Shown piece by piece: positions 8,476 to 36,463 of a DNA stretch of 64,000 nucleotides. Positions within the stretch are counted from its first letter, which is position 1. Each line of letters opens with the position of its first letter. Origin of the DNA: a virus; the IMG/VR virus record IMGVR_UViG_3300036772_000367, positions 32,001 through 96,000 of that record, one strand, 5' to 3'. Made by a program: the position numbers and the translations under genes. The notes beneath the pieces are model-generated. The model made no database searches, was not told the origin of the DNA, and saw only the letters and a list, made by a program, of their open reading frames with translations.

Positions 8476-9024
8476 GTGGCAACGCACTGGGTCTTCCAGA
8501 TTCCACAGCGCCATGTTGAGCGAGAACTAGTCGCCGCTCATGGTGATGGCTTCGCCACGTTCGCCGAAGGCGTGGCGAAGGGGCTCGGCACCAAGACCTT
8601 CCTGATCTGGCAGACAGTCGTGGTCATCCTCTGGATCACGCTGAACCTTGTCGGTCTCACCGTCTGGCACTGGGATCCCTATCCTTTTATCTTGCTTAAT
8701 CTTGGTTTCTCGACCCAGGCAGCGTACGCGGCACCCTTTATCATGTTTGTAGGCAATCGCCAGGAGAAGCGGGCGAAGATTCGGGCTGACATCGAGTTCG
8801 AGAATGATCTGCGCAATCGTGTATATATCACGGCCCTCTGCCATAAGTTGGGTGTGTCAGTAGAGGAATTGGAGAACGTGGTGCAGCAGGAGTTGACGTC
8901 GGTACGGGATCAAGAGGTCCAGGCCGACATGACAGCTCAGCCTCGGCACAAAGCCATCGTGGACTCCGCCAGCACCGACATTCAAAGCGCTGTCCAGGAG
9001 AAGACGGATAATGGGGCGACCTAA
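8476..9024 (+). CDS. DUF1003-family membrane protein
   Basis: WDPYPFILLNLGFSTQAAYAAPFIM signature. Confidence 0.85.
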   Translation: MATHWVFQIPQRHVERELVAAHGDGFATFAEGVAKGLGTKTFLIWQTVVVILWITLNLVGLTVWHWDPYPFILLNLGFSTQAAYAAPFIMFVGNRQEKRAKIRADIEFENDLRNRVYITALCHKLGVSVEELENVVQQELTSVRDQEVQADMTAQPRHKAIVDSASTDIQSAVQEKTDNGAT

Positions 9025-12490: not shown

Positions 12491-13039
12491 ATGAGCATTC
12501 TGCGTGAGGGACGCTTGGCCACCTATATCGGCGAGGGTGATGACTTCGGTGCGCAAGTCGAGGTGCTCTCACTGGAGAACCGCGCGGCGTGGGGGAGATT
12601 CGTGACCGGCGCACGCACCGGAGAGATCGAGCTGATCGAGGACCTCGATCTCACGCCGGCCGAGCCACGCTCACGTTATGCCAGGCTCGACCCTGTTGTG
12701 GTTCCCGTTTCACCCGTGAGCGCCCCTGTGGTGGTCATAGCGGCCCGGGATGACCTGGACGACTCCTTGGACGTTGGGTTGCCCTTGCGGGTGGGTGTAG
12801 CTCAGGTACAGCACACGCAAGGCACTCTGGGTGTACTGACCATGCTGGCCACTCGGGGGGATCTCCAACGGTTGTCCACTGTCGTGGACGAGGCGTTCAT
12901 GGTGGTGGCCAACCGCATCCGCCAGGATCCCAATGTCCGCACCGTCATCGCACAGCTCGACGACGAGGATGCCGAGAACCTGGTGCAGATGGCATCGTTG
13001 ACGTTGTTGCACTCGGCCTTCGGAGAGCAGCGACAGTGA
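12491..13039 (+). CDS. hypothetical protein
   Basis: 182 aa in operon. Confidence 0.7.
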   Translation: MSILREGRLATYIGEGDDFGAQVEVLSLENRAAWGRFVTGARTGEIELIEDLDLTPAEPRSRYARLDPVVVPVSPVSAPVVVIAARDDLDDSLDVGLPLRVGVAQVQHTQGTLGVLTMLATRGDLQRLSTVVDEAFMVVANRIRQDPNVRTVIAQLDDEDAENLVQMASLTLLHSAFGEQRQ

Positions 13040-13710
13040 CGTTGATGCTGCATGTCGCCACGTCAGTCGAGGATCACGTCGACCGACTGGTAGCGGGGAC
13101 CGATCTGGAAGGCAATGAGAGTATGCGTAAGCACATTGCCAAGGTCGTCGCGACTGTGCCTGAGCAGCATCTGGCGACATTGGGCAGCATCTCTATCAAG
13201 CCAGACAAGGACCCTAATACGCGCGGTCGATACCGGAGCCGTGGCTATTCGGCCCGTACCAAGCAACCCGTTCCCGCATCTATCACCTTCACGCCGCATG
13301 TGGTGAACGATGAGAAGGGGTACCACTCAGAGATTCGCGACTCTGAGAAGAAAGGTTGGCTGCGACGGACAGGTTTGCCAGGCGTGCAGGCGACCTTGCA
13401 TCATGAAGTAGGTCATCATCTCTATGATGCTATGAATCAAAAGCAGCATGATGCCATGTGGACTGAGGTTGGGGCACAACCAGAGTTCAAGCCACCCAAT
13501 ACTCGTAGTGCCCAACCCATTGGTCCGCGCTTCATTCGTAGTAATCGATCCAATATGGTCAATCAAGTCGGTGTATATGGCGCATACAATGAACGTGAAG
13601 CTGCATCTGAACTGTATGCGCAGCATCACGGGAAGTATCCCACTGAGGCATCACACATTGCATTTCGCCATATGACGGGAGGGACCGATGAAGATCCCGG
13701 GGCCTCGTGA
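13036..13710 (+). CDS. zincin-like metallopeptidase (HExxH)
   Basis: LHHEVGHH plus downstream YGAYNEREAASELY. Confidence 0.75.
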   Translation: MTLMLHVATSVEDHVDRLVAGTDLEGNESMRKHIAKVVATVPEQHLATLGSISIKPDKDPNTRGRYRSRGYSARTKQPVPASITFTPHVVNDEKGYHSEIRDSEKKGWLRRTGLPGVQATLHHEVGHHLYDAMNQKQHDAMWTEVGAQPEFKPPNTRSAQPIGPRFIRSNRSNMVNQVGVYGAYNEREAASELYAQHHGKYPTEASHIAFRHMTGGTDEDPGAS

Positions 13711-15877
13711 AGTCGGTGCGGTACTCGCTGGAGTATTGAGCGAACCGCCCTCGCTTGCTCGTGATCGTGCGCTGGCCATCCTGAGTGGAGAGGCACACAC
13801 GGCAGCCACTATCCCAGCCGGTTGGGAAGGCGCGCAGGGACCGTTCCGTAGTGACTACAACGAGCCGCATGTCTACGCTCGTGACATTCATTCCGGCGCC
13901 GGTAACTGTGTCTGCGGTGCTGGATTGCAAGAGCGAGTTCATCTCCAAGCAGCTCCGGGTGTAGAGATACCTGACAGAATGCGCACCACAGCATTCCCTA
14001 CGAGGGAGTGCGATAACTGCGGCGGTAGGATGTCACCTCGGTGGCCACGTACCAGACTCGATGATGGACGAATGGTGTGCCCCATGTGCGCTCAGAACGG
14101 GCCGCGTACCGCTGTGATCATGCCTAAGGAGTGGCTGAATTGGGCACGACAGCCGCGACTCGCGGGCCTCTCTCCTCACGATCGTGAATGGCATCACGGG
14201 TGGGATCTGGGATATGACCACGGTCGTGCCAGCGAGCCAGATCTCAGTGAGAGGGATCGAGCGTTTCACCGCTCGGCGCACAAAGAGCAGTTCTCCCAGG
14301 GATACTCTCATGGACTGCATTCCGGTCTGGATCAGACGACATCTTCGTCCACCACATCCGTGGTCGCCGTGCGGGATGACGGACAACTGCGGGTGCTGGC
14401 TCATGACTCTGGTTCGGTGGAGGTCATCTACCACTGCTTCGCAGGAGAGACGCGCTATCTCACCAAGGAGGGCACGAAGACCTTCGCTGAGACTGCGGGC
14501 ACCGTTCAAGAAGTGTTGACCTCTGCGGGTATTGCCAATGACCGTGGTCGGTGGGCGGAAGCCATCATCCATAGCTTCGGTCCGCAGCCAGTCATGACAG
14601 TGCGACTACGTCGCAACAAGGTTGTTAAAACCATTCGCGCCACACATAACCACGAATGGAACATTTTGGGTCGTAATAAGGCCCATCGTGTGGTGACCAC
14701 TCAGGATCTGAAGCCTGGTATGCGGATGGCCCACCTGCGAGCGCGGGGATACTTCTATGAGCCTGAGCATGAGGCTATTCGCATGGGCTTCGTCTTCGGT
14801 GATGGCGCTATTCTGCAACGTCCCCAACAGACATATGGTGTGGCAGTTCTCTGGGGGCCGAAGCGAGATCTGGCCAAATACTTTGATGAAGTATGTACGA
14901 CCGCCCCCCGGGAACGCACCACGATCAATGATGTACCGGGACTGGCATACACCTCCGGCATGGTGGGCTACACCAAAACACTGCCCCCGTTGACGGCACC
15001 ACTGGAGTACCTGCACGGCTGGTTGATGGGATACTTCGCCGCTGACGGCTCGGTCACTAAGACCAACATCAGCATGACGTCTTCAGTGCTGGAGAACCTT
15101 CAGCACGTGCGGGATGTAGCTATCCTATTGGGTATCGGTACTTATTCCATTACCTCGAAGTGGCGCACTGGGTTTGGTGTGACCTCGCAGATCCACACAC
15201 TCGGTTTTTCGGGTAAGGACATGGGTACGTCATTCTTCTTGCGGCATGACCATCAGGATGCCTACGACCTGCGTGACGAACGAGGCACCAATGACCGTGA
15301 GCGTTTCGGGTGGACAGTCGATGCCATTGAGGACACTGGTGAGGTCACCCCCGTCTACTGCGCTCGCGTACCGGAGACCGGCACCTTCGTGCTGGAAGAC
15401 AACATCTGGACCCGAAACTGTCCCTTCTGTGGTTCTGGTCAGGTGATCGCGCGTTCGGATGGCACTGTCATGTGCGAGTTCTGCAACTCTTCCTTCACCG
15501 TGCAGGTGCAGCCGGAGTTCTCGGCGTTCCCCCAGACCGTCGATGGTCAGCCGGTACAGATTCCTGGTCTGCCACCCGACTCCAACCAGGACGCGGGTGG
15601 TCTGCCTCCTGATGAGGGTGCACCAGGCGACCCCACGGCCGAGGACAACGTGCCGAACGATGCTGAGGAGAACGGCCCGCCCGAGGACGGCGACAACACC
15701 GAGGACGAGCCCATCGACTCCGGCGGCAATCCCTTGTTTAACAAGCACTCCTACCGCACCGCTTCGGGTCATGCCCTGTCCGAACTGGAGTATGTTCGTC
15801 ATCTTGCCTTGAAGATCACTCCCGACCGGAAGAATGTGCTCGCACGTATCCGGTTGGAGAGAGCAGCAGGTGACTGA
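13688..15877 (+). CDS. modular Zn-ribbon head protein containing an intein
   Basis: Several CxxC pairs; spliced extein junction reads IYH-CPFCGSGQV. Confidence 0.8.
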   Translation: MKIPGPREVGAVLAGVLSEPPSLARDRALAILSGEAHTAATIPAGWEGAQGPFRSDYNEPHVYARDIHSGAGNCVCGAGLQERVHLQAAPGVEIPDRMRTTAFPTRECDNCGGRMSPRWPRTRLDDGRMVCPMCAQNGPRTAVIMPKEWLNWARQPRLAGLSPHDREWHHGWDLGYDHGRASEPDLSERDRAFHRSAHKEQFSQGYSHGLHSGLDQTTSSSTTSVVAVRDDGQLRVLAHDSGSVEVIYHCFAGETRYLTKEGTKTFAETAGTVQEVLTSAGIANDRGRWAEAIIHSFGPQPVMTVRLRRNKVVKTIRATHNHEWNILGRNKAHRVVTTQDLKPGMRMAHLRARGYFYEPEHEAIRMGFVFGDGAILQRPQQTYGVAVLWGPKRDLAKYFDEVCTTAPRERTTINDVPGLAYTSGMVGYTKTLPPLTAPLEYLHGWLMGYFAADGSVTKTNISMTSSVLENLQHVRDVAILLGIGTYSITSKWRTGFGVTSQIHTLGFSGKDMGTSFFLRHDHQDAYDLRDERGTNDRERFGWTVDAIEDTGEVTPVYCARVPETGTFVLEDNIWTRNCPFCGSGQVIARSDGTVMCEFCNSSFTVQVQPEFSAFPQTVDGQPVQIPGLPPDSNQDAGGLPPDEGAPGDPTAEDNVPNDAEENGPPEDGDNTEDEPIDSGGNPLFNKHSYRTASGHALSELEYVRHLALKITPDRKNVLARIRLERAAGD
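14435..15418 (+). mobile_element. intein with LAGLIDADG homing endonuclease (328 aa)
   Basis: Starts CFAGETRYLT; block B ATHNHEW; MGFVFGDG and LMGYFAADG; ends VYC...FVLEDNIWTRN followed by Cys. Confidence 0.9.
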
Positions 15878-16164: not shown

Positions 16165-19100
16165 GTGACCGACCCAGGATTTCAGGTCAATGACCGACGT
16201 CGCACCACGAGGACGTCGGGCCTTGTCGTGGGCGGCTCCGTGGACGACGCCAAGGAATATGCCCGTCGCATGGGTCGGATGCCGCGCGAGGGCGTCACCT
16301 ACACCGGCATGGGTGATACCAACCCCTACTCACGCCAGTTCTCCCGCAACCGCTCCGAGGAGCAGGTTGTCGAGGAGATGCGCCTGAACCGGCGGGTCGC
16401 CTCACGTCGTACCGCGACGGCTGGTGGGACCACTGGGATTCCTGGTGGCGGGATGGCAGGGAATAACGTCAGCTTCGCTACGGGTCGACCACGTGACCCG
16501 ATGTTTTACTGGCGGCAATCGAACATTCCTTATGACGTCACCAAAGACGACGAGCTCAAGAAGATTCGTGAGTTTTGCAATACGCCAGAAGCTCCGATCT
16601 GGATGGGCGACTATTCATTCAAGCCCATCAGTGAGGTGCAGTCGGGTGATGAGGTAATTGGTTGGCAGTACAACACTGGTCCGAGTGGTGGTCAGCGTAA
16701 GAAGCTTGTGCGTACCAAGGTGCTCGCTGTGAAGCGTCGCGTCGCACCCCAGGTCGTGCGTATCACGATGGAGTCAGGCAAGGTCATTCGTTGTACCCCC
16801 GATCATCAGTGGGCGAATTACTCGTACTCACCCACTCAGAGGGAGGTACTCGATCGTCGTATCATGAAGGCGACGGGACAACCGCGCAATAAGCCGATTG
16901 CGTGGAAACAACCTGAGTACAGGGCTGCACAAGTGGGCGGTTATCTCACGTCTTTCATTGAACCCACGCCCGAGTTGACGGATGACAAGCAACGCATGGC
17001 TGCCATGTGGCTAGCGGGATTGTATGACGGCGAAGGCTGCGGCAATGAGCTAGGACAAAGCGCGACCCACAATCCAGCAGTATGTCAGCGTATCAAGGAT
17101 TCATTGGAAACACTGGGTCTGCCGTGGACTCAACAACCGAATGCTATCTACATTCGAGAAGCTGGACAAGGATATCGTTGGGGTGCACACCAGGATATGG
17201 TGAACTTCCTCAACTGGACTGAGCCGACCCGCAAGACCACCAAGCAGAATGATGCTGCGATCCTGGTGCGCCCTAGTGGTGGCAAGGACCGTGTCGTGTC
17301 CATCGAGTCCGAGGGCCCTGGTGAAGTCGTCTCCATGCAGACGGAGACGGGCAATTACGTGGCATGGGGCTATGCCTCAAAGAACTGTAGACTGTTATAC
17401 CTGACTCACCCGGTGATCGCGGCGTGTACCGACATCTTCACCAAGTTTCCATTGCAAGGCATGGAGCTGGAATGCAAGGACGACCAGCTCAAGGATTTCT
17501 ACGAGACATTGTTTTTCGACCAACTCGACTACCCCAACTACCTGAAGGACCTGGGCCGCGAGTACTGGTTGGTCGGTGAGGCATGGCCACTCGGGTCGTT
17601 CAACGAGATCCTGGGTGTCTGGGAGGACGAGGAGCTTCTCAATCCCGATGACGTTCAGGTGGAACGGTCACCGTTCTTGCGCGACCCGCGCTTCCTGATC
17701 AAGCTGCCGGAGACGCTGCGGCGTGTGCTGCAACAGCGCTCGCCTGCGTGGGAATACGACAAGCTGATGAGGGCGTACCCCGAGCTGGCTGCCTATGCCG
17801 GGGACGATGCTCTGATGCCAGTGAGCAACATCCTGCTGAAGCAGTTGCGTTTCAAGGGCGACACGTTCCACAAGCGCGGCATTCCTATCCTCATGCGCGG
17901 CTTTCGGGCCATCGTGCAGGAAGAGATGCTGAACACCGCGCTGGATGCCATCGCCGACCGCTTGTATACCCCGCTGATCCTGGCCAAGTTGGGTGCATCC
18001 GCTACAGACCTGGGTACCGACATGCCCTGGGTGCCCACCCAGCTCGACCTGGAGAACTTCGAAGAGGCTGTCGATGCCGCCCTGGCCGGAGACTTCCGGG
18101 TCATCACCCATCACTTCGCCACCGACATGGCGCCCGTTTTCGGTCGAGAGAACATGCCTGACCTCTCTGCCGACTTCGATCGCGTGCTTGATCGCATCCT
18201 CATGGTATATGGCATTTCTCGCACGATGCTCAACGGCGCAGAACAAGGCGAAACCTATGCGGCCGACGCTCTGAATCGGGATATGGTCAGCCAGACTCTG
18301 GCTGACTACCAGGCTCTGATCAAGGACTTCTTCCGTGATCGCGCCCTGGTAGTAGCCGAAGCACAGGAACATTTTGACTATGACGTACGCGGTGGCAAGC
18401 GCTACGTGAAGATGGAAGAAGTCATTGTTCCGGACGAGGAAACCGGCGAAGAGAAAATCATCGAACAGCCAGCCCTGTTGGTGCCCGAGCTGACGTTCAA
18501 GACCATGACTCTGGCCGATCAGCAAGAGGAACGCCAGTTCATGGAGGCATTGAACCAAGCAGGCGTGCCGGTGCCCTACACGCGGCGGCTCACGGGAACC
18601 GGTTTGGACTTCGACGACATCATTGAGCAGCGGCAGTCCGAACAGGTCGCGTTGGCCGTGGCCGAGCAGGAGACGCGCCGGGAGACCTTCAAGGCCCTGC
18701 GTGATGCTGGGCTGCCTATCCCCGCCGACCTGGCGCAGGACTTCCAGCCGAAGTCCATCCCAGCTGGACAGCCAGCGATGCCCGAGGCGCTGCCTGGCCA
18801 GGATGCGGCCATCCCCACGTTGGGTGCCCTACCTCCCGATCTGCCGGCCCTGGCGCCCAGCATGGAGGATCAACAGCAGACCGACGAGGAAGACGCCAGT
18901 GGGCCACCTGGGGCGGCGAATCCACTAGGCCAGGTCATCATGATGCCGAATGCCAACATGCCCCAGCCGGGAGACCAACGGCCGCCGGAGTCCGACGAAC
19001 AGCGTGGCCGGATGCCTAAGCCCGCGAAGCGCAAGGATGAGCTGGATCCCTACGATCAGTTCCGCGCGCGGCATTTCGGTCAGGTGAAGCAGGCAGCGCG

Positions 19101-19251
19101 AGAGTATTTCACAGCGCCTGACAATTCCGAAGAAGTCTCGCCCTCGCAGTACTATCCTTCGGGGAGGTTCGGCGATCCGCGTCATATCGGAATGCGTGCC
19201 TATGTGGATGTGCCCGAGGAATATCGTGTGCCAGACGAAGACGCATCGTGA
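16165..19251 (+). CDS. portal protein containing an intein
   Basis: Position and length; motifs GREYWLVGEA, RGIPILMRGF, DRLYTPLILAKLG resemble Bxz1-type portals (recall). Confidence 0.8.
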   Translation: MTDPGFQVNDRRRTTRTSGLVVGGSVDDAKEYARRMGRMPREGVTYTGMGDTNPYSRQFSRNRSEEQVVEEMRLNRRVASRRTATAGGTTGIPGGGMAGNNVSFATGRPRDPMFYWRQSNIPYDVTKDDELKKIREFCNTPEAPIWMGDYSFKPISEVQSGDEVIGWQYNTGPSGGQRKKLVRTKVLAVKRRVAPQVVRITMESGKVIRCTPDHQWANYSYSPTQREVLDRRIMKATGQPRNKPIAWKQPEYRAAQVGGYLTSFIEPTPELTDDKQRMAAMWLAGLYDGEGCGNELGQSATHNPAVCQRIKDSLETLGLPWTQQPNAIYIREAGQGYRWGAHQDMVNFLNWTEPTRKTTKQNDAAILVRPSGGKDRVVSIESEGPGEVVSMQTETGNYVAWGYASKNCRLLYLTHPVIAACTDIFTKFPLQGMELECKDDQLKDFYETLFFDQLDYPNYLKDLGREYWLVGEAWPLGSFNEILGVWEDEELLNPDDVQVERSPFLRDPRFLIKLPETLRRVLQQRSPAWEYDKLMRAYPELAAYAGDDALMPVSNILLKQLRFKGDTFHKRGIPILMRGFRAIVQEEMLNTALDAIADRLYTPLILAKLGASATDLGTDMPWVPTQLDLENFEEAVDAALAGDFRVITHHFATDMAPVFGRENMPDLSADFDRVLDRILMVYGISRTMLNGAEQGETYAADALNRDMVSQTLADYQALIKDFFRDRALVVAEAQEHFDYDVRGGKRYVKMEEVIVPDEETGEEKIIEQPALLVPELTFKTMTLADQQEERQFMEALNQAGVPVPYTRRLTGTGLDFDDIIEQRQSEQVALAVAEQETRRETFKALRDAGLPIPADLAQDFQPKSIPAGQPAMPEALPGQDAAIPTLGALPPDLPALAPSMEDQQQTDEEDASGPPGAANPLGQVIMMPNANMPQPGDQRPPESDEQRGRMPKPAKRKDELDPYDQFRARHFGQVKQAAREYFTAPDNSEEVSPSQYYPSGRFGDPRHIGMRAYVDVPEEYRVPDEDAS
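16576..17385 (+). mobile_element. intein (270 aa) with one clear LAGLIDADG motif
   Basis: Starts CNTPEAPIWMGD...ISEVQSGDEV; block B CTPDHQW; WLAGLYDGEG; ends YVAWGYASKN followed by Cys. Confidence 0.9.
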
Positions 19252-24186: not shown

Positions 24187-27100
24187 GTGGTTGTGTGGCA
24201 TCCGTCCGATCGGCTCTACGCCACCGCTGAGGTCGCTGAGGGCGATCGCAACCCCAGCGGGGTGAAGCCGTTGACCTCGGATCTGCCCGAGCAACAGTTC
24301 GAGGGTGATGGCGGGCCGCCACCGTGCCCCTACTGTGGCCACCCCGAGTTCAAGGAGTTGCCGTCCAACGGCCGGGCCGATCGCGCCCAATGTGCCCAGT
24401 GTGGTGGCATGGTCTACTCGGTCAACGGCAGTCAGTGGCAACCTGAGCTGATCGGTGATCCTTCCAATCACCCCTCCAGCGCAGCGGACCCCGCGTCCGG
24501 TGGTGTGGGTGGTGCGGCGAACTCCGAGGTCCTGATGAACCAGGGACCTGTGCGGACGCACGACGATTCTCAGCTCCGCAACTCGTTGAGTTCACTGGTG
24601 AAGACGGCCGACGATGATCAGTGTCCGCGTTGCTCCGGCGACATGACCGACACAGCGCCGGATCGTTGCTTGGACTGTGGCTATACCCAACCGACTCGTG
24701 TCTCGGACAATCCTCCGCAACATTCTGGACAACGTGTCGCCCTACTGCATACCGCATTGTCCTGGGATGAGATTGGGGATCGGCATCCCCACGTCTACGG
24801 CGACTCCGAGATCCATGGGGATGCCGCTGACGGGGCAGATGGCCCAGGCATCGGATCGGCCGCCAATTACCTAGCCCACGAGACACCAGAGGATCCGGAT
24901 GGGGAAGGGCACTCCGAACACGAGCTGGAGTTCCGCGCGAGGACGGTGCACCCGCGCCACATCGACTACAGCCCCAGCGGTTCGGATGACTACCGGGTGA
25001 AGCGCGCCCGTGAGGGCTATCAGACCCAGCCGGAGATGATGCCGCCGCTGGTGTTGGTCAAGCGCCACAACGTATATCAGGTGGCCGATGGTCACCACCG
25101 GGCCGAGGCCGCTGCTTCGCTGAACCAGCCGGTGCGGGCCTACATCGCGGACTCTCCCTATCCCGATACACCTTTCCGGGACGGCGAGATCGGTCCCTTC
25201 CACCACGCCGAGCCGATCGAGGCCGAACACCACACGGCAGCGAAACCACGACCAAGCAAGAGCTTTCCCAATGGAAAGCGTCACGGCATCGAGATTACTG
25301 ACGGTGCCTACCCAGACGAGTCAGGCATTGTTCAGTGTGACAACTGCGGTAAATACCACTCTGCTACGTACGACCATGAAGGCCAGCACCACGAGGGGCC
25401 CATCCATGCGGTGACGTGCCCGCAGGATGGCATGACCGACTACTACACCAACGAGCGCCTGGAGCCACGCGAGGCGGCACTGAACGATGAGGTTCCCTGG
25501 TGTGCGCACCTTTACCACGGCAACTGCACCTATCCCGGTGACAAGCTGCCCAACGGCACCATCCTGGGCATCCCGCAGGATCGTGGTCCGTGCCCATGGA
25601 AGCACTCGGCGTTCCAGCAGGCCGCGTGTCCCATCTCAGCGCCAGGACCGATGGCTGTCATGACGGTGACAGCCGAGTCGCATACTGCTGATGGCGACTA
25701 TCGAATGCAGCACCAAGCGCCCGATGCCGACTACGGGGCCCCGCTGCATGATGTCGAAGAGATGATGCCCGACTTCTATACGCACCCGCATTACTACAAC
25801 ACTGGTCAGGAACATTTCTGGGATTCCGCTAACAAGATCATAAAGGCGCGCGGGAACCCAGAGAAGAAGGTTCAGATCTATCGGTCGCTGCCGGCCGACT
25901 ACGCGCACGAAGGTTTCCACACGGGCGATTGGGTCACCACATCGAAGGACTATGCCCGTGAGCATGGTAAGGCCACTGAGGACAAAGGATCAGAGCACGA
26001 CTGGCCGATCATCTCCACCAGGGTGCCAGCGAAGCACCTGCACACCGAGGGAGACGTCCACGAGTGGGCCTACAACGGCCCGGAGAAGCCCTTCGGCCAC
26101 ACGGTGAGCTTCCCGGGCGGTCGTGAGCAACAGATCCGGCAGCGTGCCGATGGCACCGTGCAACGGGTCAAGCATCGTCCTGTCGACCCGTTGAATGCCC
26201 AAGGGTACAGCTTCAGTCATCACATGCTGAACGAGAACTCGGATAACCCGGCGCATCAAGTGACGGCGTATGGCCCCGACGAGAACTATGCGGGGCACCA
26301 CCGAGTCGATGCGCAGGGCACCGTCGAGTCCCACGTCGAGCCCGAACATGAGCATATGGCAGATCCGCTGCGTGAGCGGATGGCCAATGAAGTCACCAAG
26401 CGCATGGCGTCACTGCATGTTGGTATCGAGGAAATGCAGCGGATTGCCATTTTTGACGGGGAAGAACAGTGGCATCTCACTGCGGTGACCGCTGGTGCGC
26501 ACGACAGCGATACAGAAATGAAGGGCTTCGGTCTCGATCCCCTGCATGAGGACGATGACTACGCCACTCTGCATCACAAATTCTCGCAGCACTATCGCAT
26601 TCTCGATCATGTTTATGCCAGCGGCAACGAAGCGCATCCAGACGACGTGGATGCTGCTGATGCCATTGATCGGCATCATCGTGACCATGATGTCCCGCCC
26701 ATCACGGATTCCACCTACGGTGATGCGCTACCGCATCAGATGGCGTCGGTGGCTGCCCAAATGATGGTCAACAAGCGTGCAGATCACAGAAGACTCGATC
26801 ATCCTACTGTGACCATGGAGCGAATTCCAGCGAAAGATCATGCGTCTGGGGATTTCAAACAAGGCAGTGTACTGGGTGACTATCAACACGACATCTCACA
26901 CATTCGGTTGGATCCTTATGTTTTGGCCAATGCTGAGATCAACCGCGAAGAGCACGCACCTCAGTCTGATGCACGTGGCTGGCACGTACCTGCTGGAAAT
27001 GCCAATCCGTGGCAGACCACTATCTCTCACGAGGGTGGGCACCACAGGGAAATGAGCCTGACGTCACAGCAACGTGCTTCTATGTTTCGCGACATTTCCC

Positions 27101-30100
27101 ATACTATTCCTGGAGTGACTCCATACACGGAGAAGCGGGCTACTGAACACGGATTGAATAAATGGCATAACGCGAACTATGCCCACCTCATCAATCACGT
27201 CGGGACGTATGCCGCAAAGAATTACCGCGAACTTGCAGCTGAGTTGTATTCTGAACATAGACATGCCGACAATCCATCGCTTGCTGCTCAGACAGCGGGC
27301 CGTCATCTGGAGGGGCGATTTGACGACGATAACAATGAACAGCGCGGATTTGCAGGAGAGTTTGGCGAAGCTAGTTCATATGGAGCCCAGCGCCGAACGG
27401 GATCAGGCCATCGCGAAGGTCATCTCACAGTTGGAGGAGTGCAGGCAGAAGGGTCTCTAACTTTCTGCACTGATACTGAGGAAATGCAGCGGGTCGCCGC
27501 GCTCGACAAAGAGGGACAGTGGCATCTGACGGCGTCCTGGGCAGACGTCAAGGACAAGGCGAAGCTGATCCGCGCGGGTGGTGGTGTCCGTATCGCCGTG
27601 GCATCGATGGATGGCATTGGCGGAGAAGTCCAGGGTGAGCACCATGTCTACGAGACACTGCTGACCTTCGTGCCCGGCTCGTACAAAGTGGGTTCCTGGC
27701 AGTGCGGCTGCAAGTGGGCTGCCTATGCTTGGGGCCGCTCGCCAGCGTATCGACGGTTCGAAGGCCGGATGTGCTCCCATGCCCTGGCCATGCAGTACGA
27801 GGCCCAGGCCCGAGGGATGTTCGGCCGCACTGTCCAGGAGGACCGGGAGCGTCCACACTGGCTCAAGCCGCACTCGCCGGTCGTAGTGCAGTACGAGCGA
27901 CCGAGTGAGAAGCACCCGCAGGGCATCGACCTGACGCGTCGTGCGGTGCCGCCGGGCAACATGCGCACGACGTTCGGGTCCAAGGAGGCAGCGATGGAAC
28001 CAGCACAACTGATCGCGCTGGCCGTGCTGACGATGTGCGACCACGATCCGGTGCGTGCCATCCCCTCCCTGGGGCTGTACGGCTTCGACCACCGCACTGC
28101 GCAACTGTTGATCAAGCAGGCGACCGAACACGAGGACGCGGAAAGTCTGAGCGTGCCGCCGTTGCGCTTGGAGCAGCTGCACCCCGAACCGATGCGGTCT
28201 ACTGCGTCGAAGCGATGCCCTGAGTGCAGTGCCTCGGTTTCCAGCAGTGCGCTGACGTGCCCCGAGTGCGGTGCGAACCTTGCCGATGTTCCCGAACTCC
28301 ATGAGGCTTCATGGCAGGACGAGGAGCAGCGCTGTCCGCACTGTGGTGGCTACCTGGGCCCGACCGCGTTCAAGGCGGGGCGCTGCCCGCACTGCGGCCA
28401 TGCACTGTCGCACCGGGAAGGTGCCTACGAGCCGGGCCTGCACAACACGCAGGATGCCCGGATGAACACCGAGGCCCCTGACTGGGGCACAGACCACCTC
28501 GTGCCCTGCGACCAGTGTCGTGGACAAGGCTGCGGTCACTGCGGCGGCACGGGCAACGTGGTGCAGATGAACGGGGTCACTGGCTCGCCTGTGCCTGACC
28601 AGTCCGAGGGTGCCGGCGACGTCATGCGTCAGGACGGCTTGGCGTGGGGTGATCCCATCTCGATGGGTGCCGTGTTGGCAGCACATGAAGATGACCCAAC
28701 TTACTTGCGCTTTGGCTCGTGGCCGAAGGACGAGCGATCGCGAAACAATATCACGGGGTTCCCTGAAGAAGGCGTGAGCGTCTACGATCTCGACCACCGT
28801 GGTGAGCCGAAGGATCCGGACGCCAACTTTGGTCGCTTGCATGAGCACCACGAGCATTGTGATCCGGACTGCGATTTGGACTCGTGGAACGAGGACTACG
28901 GTAACGACACCCTGGAGGAAATGCGGGGACGAGTGCATCGTGCCGAGAGGACTCGCTACAACGGCAACGAGAACCACAGCGATACCGGACATCTGGTCAA
29001 GGGCGAGATGGCGGGCATTGGCCATGACGGCGAGCCGCTGCTGAAGAATGTGCGCCGAGTCGGCGACTGGATCGATCATCGCCATCTGTTTTTCCCGCAG
29101 GCGGAGAGGCACCGACTGGCTCGTGATCCCTATGACGAGGACTACGAAGAGCCCAAGCTGAACAAACGTAGCGCAAAGAAGCAGGAGAGCCACGCGCCTT
29201 CGGTCGCGGGCGTGGCGCTCAAGGCGGCCGACACGGGTCGAGTACTGATGCTGCAACGTGGCCTAGAGGACAAGAAGGATCCTGCTGCTGGTACGTGGGA
29301 ATTCCCCGGCGGCCACATTGAGCCGGGCGACAAGACGTCTCTGCATGGTGCGATGCGGGAGTGGGAAGAGGAAGTCGGTCAACCGTTCCCGGACGGTGGT
29401 GTGGTCCACCACGTCTGGACGTCGCCGAATGGTGTCTACCAGGGTCACGTCGTGGTGATCCCCGCCGAGCGTGACCTGACGATGCACGACGGCCGCGTGA
29501 TGACCAATCCTGATGATCCACATGGTGATCATGCCGAGCAGGCTGCCTGGTGGCAGGTCGAGCACGCACGCAAGAACCCCGCACTGCGGCCCGAGGTGAA
29601 GCAGAATACGCCATGGAAGCAGCTTGCCAACGCAGGAATGCAGAAGGAAGCTGACTACGCCGCGAATGATGCACTCAGTGGCGGCGGTCCCGAGGTGCAC
29701 ACGCCTACCGACGCACCGCAGCACTCTAACTCCACAAACCCGGCCAGCACCGGCTACGCGACGTCCTGGGATCCGAACGGGTGGAACGGCGAGGAACCCT
29801 TCGGCGGTCGTGATGACGTGCCCATGGCGGGCTACTCGGCATCCTTGGCACCCATCATCGAACCCCGATACTCCTACCAGCCGCCGCAGGCCGTAGCGAG
29901 TGTCCTGGGCCAATGGGGGCAGGGACAGACACCCGTGGTGTTCGAGCGTGCCGCCAGGACGCTGGCCACTCTGCACGACGAGCCAGAACCTGCGCTGCCC
30001 TCCACCGATGGTGGTGACGAGCGCATGAAGCCGATCAACCACCTGCATCACGGCATCCCACACAATGACCAGGGCACAATGCCGTACGGCTATGACGATC

Positions 30101-33970: not shown

Positions 33971-36463
33971 GTGCTGCGGAAGACCGCTGTCTTTGATGTC
34001 CTGGATGTCATCCAGGCGCATGATATTGCGCGACAGACTCCTCTAGGGCCGATCAGTCGCATCGGTCATCGACATGTCTTTGATTTCGAGCCTCGGTATG
34101 GCTACCTCTATGTTCGTAGCCGGATGATTTCCTCGCGGTGCAATGATAACTTCGATGAGTTCCCCGCCGAGGAAATCAAGAAAGCCTACGCCACGTTCGT
34201 CGGCAAGCCAGTCTTCGTCAACCACAATAACGATGATCACCGTCGGATGCGTGGTCTGATCATCGATGCCGTGCTGCACGAAGATCGTAACCCAGATGGC
34301 TCCCCAGACACCTGGGTCGAGGGCCTGATGGAGATCGATGGCCTGCGGTATCCCAAGTTGGCCAAAGCACTCATCAAACGGCACATCGAGCGCACCTCCA
34401 TGGGTGTGGACGTTGAGTACTCCATCTGTTCGAAGTGTGGCAACAAGGCCACCACACCACTGGAGTACTGCCGCCACGTGCCGGGCATGAAGGGCAAGCG
34501 CATCTACTCCTTCACCAAGTCTGGTGCCAGGGTCAGCGAACTGATCCGGGAGAAGTGCTACGGGCTGGGGTTCTTCGAGAACTCCCTGTTGGTCGAGCCA
34601 CCAGCAGATCCAACTGCCCTCTTTTTGGACAAGCCCATCCTCGGTCCTGGACTGGAGCACCTGGCCATGACGGCATCGGACCGTTACCTTCAGCGTATTG
34701 CCTCCGTCGCGGCATCCTTTCGTCTGGTAGCTGGGATGCGCTGCGTGGCATGTCGGGGTCTGAACACCGTGGCCGACCTAGAGGGGCACCACGAGTGCTT
34801 CGACTGTTCGGCGGCTTGGAACTCGCGTACCGCTTCTCTGGAAGTGGAAGCGGCTCCGCGTTACGCCGATCCTGCCCAACATCCTTGGTTCCAGCAGCAC
34901 CCGCTGAATCACCAGAACATCGTGGATCATTGGCATCAGGCCACTCCCGACGAGCGTACCCAAGGAATGCATTGGTATTCTGATGCGCATATTATCGGGC
35001 AGGCTCTCGGTGAGCACCATGAAAAATCGCATGGTCTTGTGCACCCGCAGGGTGCATCACATCTTGGTGCGGGCATTCTTGCGACCTACTCGCCTCAGAT
35101 GGGTTGGGCAGGCAATATGCACAATGCCGCCCGAGTGTTGCACGGCAACAAGGGCATCGGTGGACCTAATTCCGGCATGATGGCCAGTACCCATCAACGC
35201 GTCGCAGCCGACCGCATTCTCAACGGTGAGAACTACATGGATGTGCTCAAGGGTCCGAAGATCCAGGACTTCGCGCACCTGATCGAGCATGGTGGGGACG
35301 CTGATCCTGATCATCCTCATGTCGTGGTAGATCGTCATGCACTCTCGGTTGCCGCTGGTCATCGGCTCACTGATGAGCAATACGGTAAGGCTCCTACTTC
35401 GCAGCGGCACTACTACGGCCATGCCGTGCAGCAGTACCATCACGCTGCCCGTGAACTGTCCAACGAGGAGTCCAGCCCCGTCGCTGGGCATCAGGTGCAG
35501 GCCACTACCTGGCTGGTCCGTCAGCGCCTCAATCAGGCCGAAGAAAAGGCTCATGCCCAAACAGGAGCCGACACACGATTGGACCGAGGACGCGATCGTG
35601 CTCGGGGCAATGCGGAAAAGAAGTGGGAGGACTGGCGCACGGAGAACCTGCCTGATCTCCAACACAAGGGACCAGGCACCGGCTATGTCGCGCGACGGCG
35701 CAGTGTGGCCTATGGCGAGACGAAGGCCCCGGCCGACGTAGACACCCTACGCGAGGAAGCTTGTCCGGTTTGCGGTGAGGAGAACGCCTACGACGGCACC
35801 GAGTGCAAGGTCTGCGGTTTTGTCGCGCCACCCAAGGAATTCCAGGATCCTGACCTGGAGATGGCCAAGCGCGTCGACCTGCGCAAGGACGTGTCCGATT
35901 TGAATGGTGCCGACGTCTCCGATCTCAACGAGGATCTCAACGACGTTGACAAGGACGGACTTGACGACGAAACCGGGGAACCGGTCGACGGTACTGGCCC
36001 TGGCGACGTGCAGCCGACGTTGGTGTGCAACAACTGCGGCACCGAGTTCGAGGCAGGCGAGCCCATCACGACCGACACACGTGATCCGCAGGCTGGTGAC
36101 GCGGGACTCGGCCCCGACGAAGGTGACGTCTGCCCGGCCTGTGGCAAGGGCATCTTGGAAGCTCCCAACGATCTGGACGTCTCTCCACAGGACGACCAGA
36201 ATCGCTCCGAGCCCGAGGACCCTGACCCGTCTGCTCAGCAAACACCTCCTTTCTCGCGCGATCGCGGCGAAGAAGATGAGGATGAGAACGAGCAGAATGG
36301 GCAACCAGACAACGACGAGGACCCCGACGCCCAGGAACGCAACTTCGTGCCGACTGACGAGGATGGGGATCCTGATGATGATGGCGACAATGACGAAGAC
36401 GCCATTCCTCCGCGTAAGCGCAAAGGCACGCCTGCTCGCCAGGACCGGAACCCCTTCAAGTGA
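33971..36463 (+). CDS. prohead (capsid maturation) protease fused to an internal cargo domain and an acidic Zn-ribbon tail
   Basis: FVGKPVFVNH...TSMG...FENSLLVEPPAD (HK97/assemblin-type His, Ser, Glu); lies upstream of scaffold and MCP. Confidence 0.85.
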   Translation: MLRKTAVFDVLDVIQAHDIARQTPLGPISRIGHRHVFDFEPRYGYLYVRSRMISSRCNDNFDEFPAEEIKKAYATFVGKPVFVNHNNDDHRRMRGLIIDAVLHEDRNPDGSPDTWVEGLMEIDGLRYPKLAKALIKRHIERTSMGVDVEYSICSKCGNKATTPLEYCRHVPGMKGKRIYSFTKSGARVSELIREKCYGLGFFENSLLVEPPADPTALFLDKPILGPGLEHLAMTASDRYLQRIASVAASFRLVAGMRCVACRGLNTVADLEGHHECFDCSAAWNSRTASLEVEAAPRYADPAQHPWFQQHPLNHQNIVDHWHQATPDERTQGMHWYSDAHIIGQALGEHHEKSHGLVHPQGASHLGAGILATYSPQMGWAGNMHNAARVLHGNKGIGGPNSGMMASTHQRVAADRILNGENYMDVLKGPKIQDFAHLIEHGGDADPDHPHVVVDRHALSVAAGHRLTDEQYGKAPTSQRHYYGHAVQQYHHAARELSNEESSPVAGHQVQATTWLVRQRLNQAEEKAHAQTGADTRLDRGRDRARGNAEKKWEDWRTENLPDLQHKGPGTGYVARRRSVAYGETKAPADVDTLREEACPVCGEENAYDGTECKVCGFVAPPKEFQDPDLEMAKRVDLRKDVSDLNGADVSDLNEDLNDVDKDGLDDETGEPVDGTGPGDVQPTLVCNNCGTEFEAGEPITTDTRDPQAGDAGLGPDEGDVCPACGKGILEAPNDLDVSPQDDQNRSEPEDPDPSAQQTPPFSRDRGEEDEDENEQNGQPDNDEDPDAQERNFVPTDEDGDPDDDGDNDEDAIPPRKRKGTPARQDRNPFK

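Follow-up and report, generated by a model that had tools for sequence, protein, structure and literature searches.

A zincin peptidase module paired with a small helical hairpin in head-cargo genes of uncultured phages

The DNA analyzed here, referred to as the window, is a stretch of 64,000 nucleotides (nt) corresponding to bases 32001-96000 of a 155,226-bp IMG/VR virus record (IMGVR_UViG_3300036772_000367), which stems from an uncultured soil phage and is rated complete by CheckV; the G+C content of the window is ~59%. According to our analysis, this genome carries two copies of a predicted zincin metallopeptidase module, one as the stand-alone product of gene A and the other inside a polyprotein of 2122 amino acids (aa), and at the last codons of each copy a hairpin of about 40 residues begins in another reading frame, with a Shine-Dalgarno sequence and a start codon of its own. 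The same pairing recurs in related phages, and we consider it highly probable that module and hairpin form a real, functionally coupled two-part cassette. Our preferred reading of the cassette, to which we assign a probability of about 0.45, is that each hairpin is the cognate partner of the adjacent peptidase and acts as its latency factor or inhibitor. Every sequence compared is metagenome-derived; the hairpin linkage counts cover ~40 loci, whereas the module family comprises 516 representative proteins.

Module-hairpin junctions in the window genome and in related phages

In a BLASTP comparison, gene A aligns with residues ~906 to 1050 of the polyprotein (window ~26900-27330) with 31% identity over 143 aa and an E value of 6e-15, and by this sequence relationship it is a paralogue of the polyprotein module; the whole 155-kb genome holds these two copies of the module only. 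The junctions at their ends are built alike (Table 1). At the end of gene A, GGGAGGG is followed by the four nucleotides ACCG and by the ATG at 13688, from which gene B starts in the +1 frame relative to gene A with an overlap of 23 nt, and the hairpin is the N terminus of the gene B product. At the end of the polyprotein module, GGAGGGG is followed by CGAT and by a TTG at 27320, again in the +1 frame and with the same 4-nt spacing, and here the hairpin is encoded by an open reading frame (ORF) nested in the polyprotein gene. A hidden Markov model (HMM) was built from seven hairpins of other contigs, with no window sequences included. Among all 4094 six-frame segments of the genome, its best match is the N terminus of gene B (E 1.4e-11), the nested ORF coming next (E 8.6e-4), ahead of a segment with an E value of 0.26. 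A preliminary description of this DNA had drawn the parallel between gene A and the polyprotein module, had placed a ribosome-binding site at the equivalent position, had read the partner as fused to the next gene and had aligned the beginning of gene B with the nested ORF. The BLASTP match and the two junctions bear out the first three of these points, and the HMM ranking places the likeness of the two peptides beyond chance. The two hairpins of the window genome are 21% identical (alignment A6), as is expected if each serves its own module, that is, in two separate cognate pairs.

Five polyproteins (those of the window and of the loci L010, L011, L018 and L021) keep a nested ORF of 44 to 46 aa with a Shine-Dalgarno sequence and a start codon; in L011, L018 and L021 it is 44 or 45 aa long, begins with ATG and lies in the +1 frame exactly at the module end. 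Length, start codon, Shine-Dalgarno sequence and helical pattern are kept although the modules are only ~30% identical, and the frame-0 sequence under the nested ORFs is a Gly/Ala-rich linker which is poorly conserved. Between L011 and L018, the one pair of relatives to which this comparison applies, frame-0 third positions differ at 6 of 45 sites within the nested ORF and at 130 of 400 in the flanks (Fisher p 0.0096), and such a reduced third-position change is the expected signature of dual coding.

The linkage of hairpin and module was followed in 39 non-redundant loci besides the window, amounting to 315 kb. All 18 hairpin matches in these loci adjoin a module, and in the window genome the two hairpins and the two modules are adjacent both times; in L049, two further hairpins are found at the start of genes g2 and g3, both of which immediately follow a module. 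The proposal made in the preliminary description would have failed if the peptide were unlinked to peptidase homologues in other genomes, and the linkage holds. Eight orthologues of gene A were found, and in all seven with readable DNA gene B overlaps gene A by 23 to 29 nt in the +1 frame and begins with the hairpin; the placement of the Shine-Dalgarno sequence inside gene A is the same in all orthologues. In other loci, the hairpin is a free ORF of 43 to 52 aa following a C-terminal module (L016, L029 and L030) or begins the next, larger gene (L012, L015 and L017).

A maximum-likelihood tree of 30 modules is split (support 96/91) into one clade in which 20 of 21 members have the hairpin and another in which none of the nine does. 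Within the hairpin clade, the format of the hairpin (free, nested or fused) switches at least five times, and the pairing is seen in about 20 related phages. It is the 18/18 adjacency, together with the L049 cases and the 20 of 21 clade members, that makes the two-part cassette well supported. A metagenome scan with the module alignment yielded no contigs beyond those already in the set, and no match was returned by megablast of the hairpin-zincin region against cultured-phage DNA or by tblastn of the zincin module against 50,697 cultured-phage records.

Several genes found next to modules in the related loci have features of their own. In L049 (5498-9704), a 1257-aa portal gene is followed by three paralogous tandem genes, each encoding an SH3-like domain (KVGPKGYIHGW), a long helix and a zincin module; the first of them opens with a ParB-like domain, the second and third with the hairpin. 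The lineage devoid of the hairpin has a different small acidic ORF of 59 to 62 aa (MT(T)K..P...NL[RQ]KIA..KK) after the module (L033:384-572 and L048:2432-2611). Moreover, several phages have, after the module, a conserved protein with the signature HPLG..GLW.....QLPAYIQN, for which Pfam gave no match; this protein is hairpin-fused in L015 (3468-4556), comes after a free hairpin in L029 (2967-3947) and has no hairpin in L026 (3049-3414).

Predicted folds of the module and the hairpin

The zinc-binding HExxH motif (HEVGH in gene A, HEGGH in the polyprotein) is invariant in alignments of 12 and of 22 sequences, and in gene A it sits in a predicted helix (residues 116-132). Across 22 diverse members of the module family, the invariant residues are Gly107, His123, Glu124, Gly126, His127, Tyr181, Glu188 and Glu192. 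The AlphaFold2 model of gene A, with a predicted local distance difference test (pLDDT) score of 89 and a predicted template modeling (pTM) score of 0.87, shows an alpha/beta N-terminal subdomain, an active-site helix and a helical C-terminal subdomain when compared by VIA-align. In the exhaustive VIA-align search, the top match is the catalytic domain of anthrax lethal factor (1yqy; Z 9.0, root mean square deviation 4.0 A over 154 residues). The lethal factor N-terminal homologue and the Pro-Pro endopeptidases PPEP-3 (Z 7.2) and PPEP-2 (Z 6.6) come next, all other high-ranking rows being zincins. Foldseek gave weak matches with the same model (best E 0.03), and the nearest ESM Atlas cluster is annotated as 'Pro-Pro endopeptidase family protein' (score 0.96). 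Tyr190/Glu197 of PPEP-3 and Tyr178/Glu185 of PPEP-1 are the oxyanion-hole Tyr and the Glu acting as third zinc ligand, and their spacing equals that of Y-x6-E in gene A (PMC12828418).

Neither gene A nor the module matches any Pfam family (E <= 0.1), PHROG or PDB sequence, and at the same threshold gene A does not belong to the Pfam profiles ATLF and Peptidase_M34. We hence call gene A M34-like rather than a member of M34. The conserved HExxH, Tyr and Glu residues, taken with the fold match to lethal factor and PPEPs, make it probable that each copy is an active zinc endopeptidase with a lethal factor/PPEP-like architecture.

A profile search with the module retrieved the 516 representative proteins at E <= 0.001, in which the module mostly stands at the C terminus of proteins of 400 to 700 aa or inside proteins of more than 1000 aa; relatives of the polyprotein range from 1400 to 2700 aa. 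One distant relative, P0040, has Phage_min_cap2 (MuF/SPP1 gp7-like) fused to the zincin module. These profile matches place gene A and the polyprotein module in a family that is found on head-cargo proteins of phages, of polyvalent or MuF type. As for the polyprotein of the window, Pfam detects NUDIX and zinc ribbons, and PHROG a ParB C-terminal domain and NUDIX.

The 19 hairpins align readily (alignment A6) with the consensus M-T-x-x-x-P-x-x-x-x-L-x-x-x-L-x-x-L-x-x-x-P-x-S/T-x-x-x-x-x-A-x-x-K-x-x-x-Q-x-x-x-L. The natural protein P0045 has a hairpin at its start and a module at its end, and its AlphaFold2 model (whole-chain pTM 0.53) has helices at residues 6-18 and 23-40 with pLDDT 93-97, followed by a disordered linker; the hairpin is accordingly modeled as an amphipathic helix-loop-helix of ~40 aa. 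Searches with the hairpin profile against Pfam and PDB returned only chance matches or designed helical repeat proteins, those in PDB being de novo designed helical repeats with loops such as NPSSEEVNEAL. Since these are its sole PDB matches, the motif P-S-x-x-[RE]-[DV]-x-A, noted in the preliminary description as P-S-x-x-R-D-x-A, is probably a proline/helix N-cap hairpin loop rather than a zinc-binding or inhibitory motif. A MAFFT alignment had hinted that the hairpin could be copied from the N-terminal helices of the module, a candidate which we rejected upon comparison by hhalign (E 0.33 over 12 columns). With protein B, the Atlas search yielded nothing of use (best score 0.81).

Gene neighborhood and candidate processing sites

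The coordinates of the features are collected in Table 1.

Table 1. Features of the two module-hairpin junctions and of the surrounding head-gene region (window coordinates)
Feature	Position	Strand	Remarks
Upstream gene, 182 aa, conserved	12491..13039	+	Stop overlaps gene A GTG start by 4 nt
Gene A, 224 aa	13036..13710	+	Predicted stand-alone zincin metallopeptidase domain; GTG start
HEVGH motif of gene A	13402..13416	+	Predicted zinc-binding and catalytic motif (His123, Glu124, His127)
Tyr181 to Glu188 of gene A	13576..13599	+	Y-x6-E; predicted oxyanion-hole Tyr and third zinc ligand
Glu192 of gene A	13609-13611	+	Likewise invariant
Shine-Dalgarno GGGAGGG for gene B	13677..13683	+	Within last gene A codons (HMTGG)
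Gene B, 729 aa	13688..15877	+	Hairpin, zinc ribbon (CxxCG.RMSPRWPRTR), LAGLIDADG intein 14435-15418, C-terminal zinc ribbon; just upstream of portal gene
Hairpin-coding start of gene B, aa 1-40	13688..13807	+	Hairpin HMM E 1.4e-11
AHTA	13793-13804	+	His37-Thr38-Ala39 of gene B (HTA 13796..13804), directly after hairpin; candidate processing site
Portal gene	16165-19251		phrog_2833; intein-containing
Polyvalent-type head-cargo polyprotein, 2122 aa	24187..30555	+	ParB-like, zincin module, SWIM-like/PHROG 30974, zinc ribbons, NUDIX
HLTA of first EEMQR.A..D.E.QWHLTA junction motif	26473..26484	+	Upstream of module unit
Second zincin module copy, within polyprotein	26659..27342	+	HEGGH at 27028-27042; module HMM E 3e-59
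Shine-Dalgarno GGAGGGG for nested ORF	27309..27315	+	Codons for LEG of module C-terminal RHLEG
Nested +1-frame ORF over Gly-rich polyprotein linker	27320..27460	+	46 aa from TTG 27320, 41 aa from ATG 27335; stop 27458-27460
HLTA of second EEMQR.A..D.E.QWHLTA junction motif	27523..27534	+	Just past nested ORF and linker
Head maturation protease	33971-36463		phrog_18299 domain

The order of genes in the head-gene region is gene A, gene B, a small ORF, the portal gene, the head decoration protein, an esterase, the polyprotein and then the head maturation protease. The gene directly upstream of gene A gave no match in Pfam and PHROG searches, and a gene of 168 to 175 aa lies directly 5' of every gene A orthologue. 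The intein of gene B (328 aa, residues 250-577) was recognized by Pfam LAGLIDADG_3, and its limits were set by the intein-less orthologues in L001 and L003. The neighboring portal protein has an insert of ~269 aa (residues ~139-407, window ~16580-17385) which is missing from the 90%-identical portal of L003, so that two inteins are found in neighboring head genes. Between 20071 and 23387, a head decoration protein (phrog_2647) precedes a GDSL esterase of 735 aa that contains a CBM5/12 domain, an arrangement reminiscent of capsid-decorating esterases. The phrog_18299 domain of the head maturation protease is part of a multi-domain protein of 830 aa, and a gene for a DUF1003 membrane protein (8476-9024; Pfam E 2.6e-29) is located amid the phage head genes.

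The AHTA motif that the preliminary description had pointed out after the hairpin of gene B is present, and a release of the hairpin by proteolysis at HTA had been suggested there. Gene B has AHTAA at this place, and its orthologues have RHAAA, VHVAS, LHVAS, RMASA or nothing; in four of six B orthologues, the residues after the hairpin fit H-[TAV]-A-[AS]. The B orthologues do not bear out a strictly conserved HTA cleavage motif, for the exact motif varies or is missing. In the polyprotein of the window, H[LVIT]?TA, a motif which we picked after seeing the data, occurs five times vs 0.88 expected from shuffles (p 0.001); the L010 polyprotein likewise has five occurrences (p 0.005), and L012 has none. 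The H(x)TA contexts recur (e.g., HTASW) and sit at domain junctions: the two copies of EEMQR.A..D.E.QWHLTA bracket the module unit, and L011 and L018 have FHVTASWADV where the window has the second copy. On these sequences, cleavage at HTA itself is weakly supported, and an H(x)TA-type processing site for head cargo is plausible, with the head maturation protease being as good a candidate for the cutting enzyme as the zincin.

Proposed role of the hairpin and comparison with known systems

According to the reading that we prefer, one clade of the module family travels as a cassette in which the peptidase module is followed by the hairpin, whose Shine-Dalgarno sequence and start lie at the last codons of the module. 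The hairpin would be made in three forms, namely as a free micro-protein of 43 to 52 aa, as a +1-nested micro-protein over the polyprotein linker, or as a flexible N-terminal tag of the next protein. It is proposed to bind the adjacent peptidase as its cognate partner and would most likely keep it latent in the producing cell, in the manner of a pro-peptide supplied in trans or of an immunity factor. A fused hairpin would tether the next protein to the peptidase, and a cut in the disordered linker, at a site of the H-x-A type, could free the tethered protein during head maturation or after ejection. We favor the latency role because it explains the free and nested forms, which carry no cargo, and because it matches the rule of MuF toxins being followed by a small ORF (PMC5576092). 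By analogy to such systems, the toxin-immunity-like inhibition of the peptidase by the peptide, as put forward in the preliminary description, is plausible.

Several points weigh against this reading. Binding and inhibition of the module by the hairpin are inferences, and all sequences are metagenomic. The conserved loop motif of the hairpin is that of a generic helix cap. Sister-clade modules have no hairpin, and neither does the last L049 module, from which it follows that a module does not generally need the hairpin to fold or to be active. The nested ORF of L010 is found ~170 nt upstream of the module instead of after it. Finally, it is unusual for an immunity protein to be joined to the N terminus of an unrelated large protein, as the hairpin is in gene B, L012, L015, L017 and L049 g2/g3, and this fits docking better.

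Docking is the alternative that fares best, unlikely as we hold it to be on the whole. A C-terminal module and the N-terminal hairpin of the next protein would then make a non-covalent joint through which split polyproteins are co-assembled and co-packaged, similarly to the docking domains of polyketide synthases and nonribosomal peptide synthetases (PKS/NRPS), while free and nested hairpins would cap or regulate vacant modules and the hairpin would have no bearing on the activity of the peptidase. The fused forms are explained at least as well by such a docking or tethering role as by latency: the hairpin is the N terminus of the next protein, ahead of a disordered linker, in 12 of the 20 hairpin modules placed in the tree; members of the clade switch between polyprotein and multi-gene forms; and the case is clearest in the L049 train, with three paralogues that each end in a module and the second and third opening with a hairpin. 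A pure connector, however, fails to explain the free hairpins of L016, L029 and L030 and the five nested ORFs, which have no cargo to connect, and the strictly conserved catalytic residues imply that the module is not a mere scaffold. Latency and docking are not mutually exclusive. We tentatively suggest that the out-of-frame 46-residue hairpin is either a trans pro-peptide, i.e., a latency switch, or an orthogonal docking plug for the upstream zincin, that the pairs serve as a portable connector or switch by which head-cargo proteins are split, fused and reshuffled, and that the window genome may hold two mutually specific pairs.

The hairpin might instead be a leader or substrate which brings the following protein to the peptidase and is then cut off, in the Pro-rich loop or at H-x-A, in which case it would serve maturation and not inhibition. 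This is in line with the Pro-Pro endopeptidase-like fold, with Pro-rich hairpin loops such as EPPS, DPTP and PPTP, and with the sites after the hairpin of the B orthologues and the H(x)TA enrichment in two polyproteins described above. Yet free hairpins leave nothing to mature, many hairpin loops lack Pro-Pro and the separate head maturation protease could perform the junction cuts, and we deem this role quite improbable. Still less credit is due to the view that module and hairpin do not interact functionally, the hairpin being a generic start-of-unit or capsid-address element, or the nested ORFs decaying relics of fusions, with adjacency reflecting gene order. MTT[KR]xP begins many downstream genes, even after modules lacking the hairpin, and in the present data coevolution is inseparable from plain linkage; against this stand the lack of any hairpin elsewhere in the 155-kb genome or in the 315 kb of related loci, the length, start signals and sequence kept by the nested ORFs across ~30%-identical modules along with reduced synonymous change, and the survival of the pairing through at least five changes of gene architecture. 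A programmed +1 frameshift at the module end, which would make the hairpin a C-terminal extension of the peptidase and which would agree with the +1 frame of 15 of 19 hairpins and with a Shine-Dalgarno-like sequence just upstream, as in prfB, is exceedingly unlikely and indeed unnecessary, because every hairpin ORF has a conserved ATG, GTG or TTG 4 to 9 nt past the Shine-Dalgarno sequence and four hairpins are in the +2 frame, besides which no conserved slippery or shift site is seen and the free forms use ordinary stop-start overlaps.

The new elements in this system are a hairpin micro-protein partner which is specific to, and conserved throughout, one module clade, its three interchangeable coding formats and its second-frame nesting in polyprotein linkers; our literature search found no description of any of the three. 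Polyvalent and MuF-type cargo proteins are injected along with the phage genome and presumably serve to disarm the host cell. A conserved micro-protein partner opens the question of how their peptidase domains are restrained or assembled to cheap and concrete experiments. The nested ORFs of 44 to 46 aa look like real genes, of a kind that will be overlooked when giant phage ORFs are annotated in the standard way. Pairs that turn out to be specific could become small orthogonal protease-inhibitor or docking parts.

Among known peptidases, the modules resemble the MEROPS M34-type zincins (lethal factor, PPEP-1, PPEP-2 and PPEP-3) in having HExxH on the active-site helix, a predicted oxyanion-hole Tyr and a predicted third-ligand Glu seven residues further on. 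They differ in having no detectable sequence-profile similarity to them and in the gap from HExxH to Tyr, which is ~54 residues in the window module and ~33 in PPEP-3. The M34-type zincins are, moreover, secreted bacterial enzymes, whereas the window modules belong to phage virion-cargo proteins.

The polyvalent proteins described by Iyer, Burroughs, Anand, de Souza and Aravind (2017) offer a closer context. In that work, the zincin MPTase is their commonest domain, linked to lethal factor via HHpred, with polyprotein autoprocessing or an effector role being proposed and with occurrences on phages as well as conjugative elements (PMC5512222). Like the window copies, these MPTases are HExxH + Glu zincins within or at the end of giant phage proteins, beside ParB-like, ART, NUDIX and similar domains, and the 2122-aa polyprotein, with a zincin inside a multi-domain cargo protein next to ParB-like, NUDIX and zinc ribbon domains, is a polyvalent protein in the sense set out there. 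Unlike them, the window copies match neither Pfam MPTase-PolyVal nor any other Pfam family (E <= 0.1), and by sequence the module may represent one of the other MPTase clades of that survey or a new clade. In the passages of PMC5512222 consulted, we found neither a dedicated small partner gene nor a second-frame nested ORF mentioned.

In the MuF polymorphic toxins of temperate phages, 20% of the toxin genes have metallopeptidase domains, and a small ORF follows in 89% (Jamet et al. 2017, PMC5576092). The likeness lies in a variable C-terminal effector on a head-associated protein, as in the fusion of Phage_min_cap2 and module in P0040, and in the small ORF directly downstream, which is free in L016, L029 and L030 and nested in the five polyproteins. 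MuF toxins have downstream immunity ORFs (PMC5576092), and toxicity and immunity of the window pair are proposed by analogy. The MuF/Phage_min_cap2 domain was not detected by Pfam in gene A and the window polyprotein. In contrast to MuF toxin-immunity pairs, the partner is only ~40 aa long here and also occurs fused to the next structural protein or nested out of frame.

As embedded overlapping genes, the nested ORFs have start signals in the alternative frame and, in the one pair of relatives compared, reduced synonymous change. A familiar counterpart is found in phage lambda, where Rz1 lies wholly within Rz in the +1 frame. In both cases a larger gene encloses, in the +1 frame, a small complete gene that brings its own start signals, and joint action of the two products is proposed. 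Differently from Rz, the host gene here is a 6.4-kb polyprotein gene, the overlap falls on a disordered linker and the function is unrelated to lysis.

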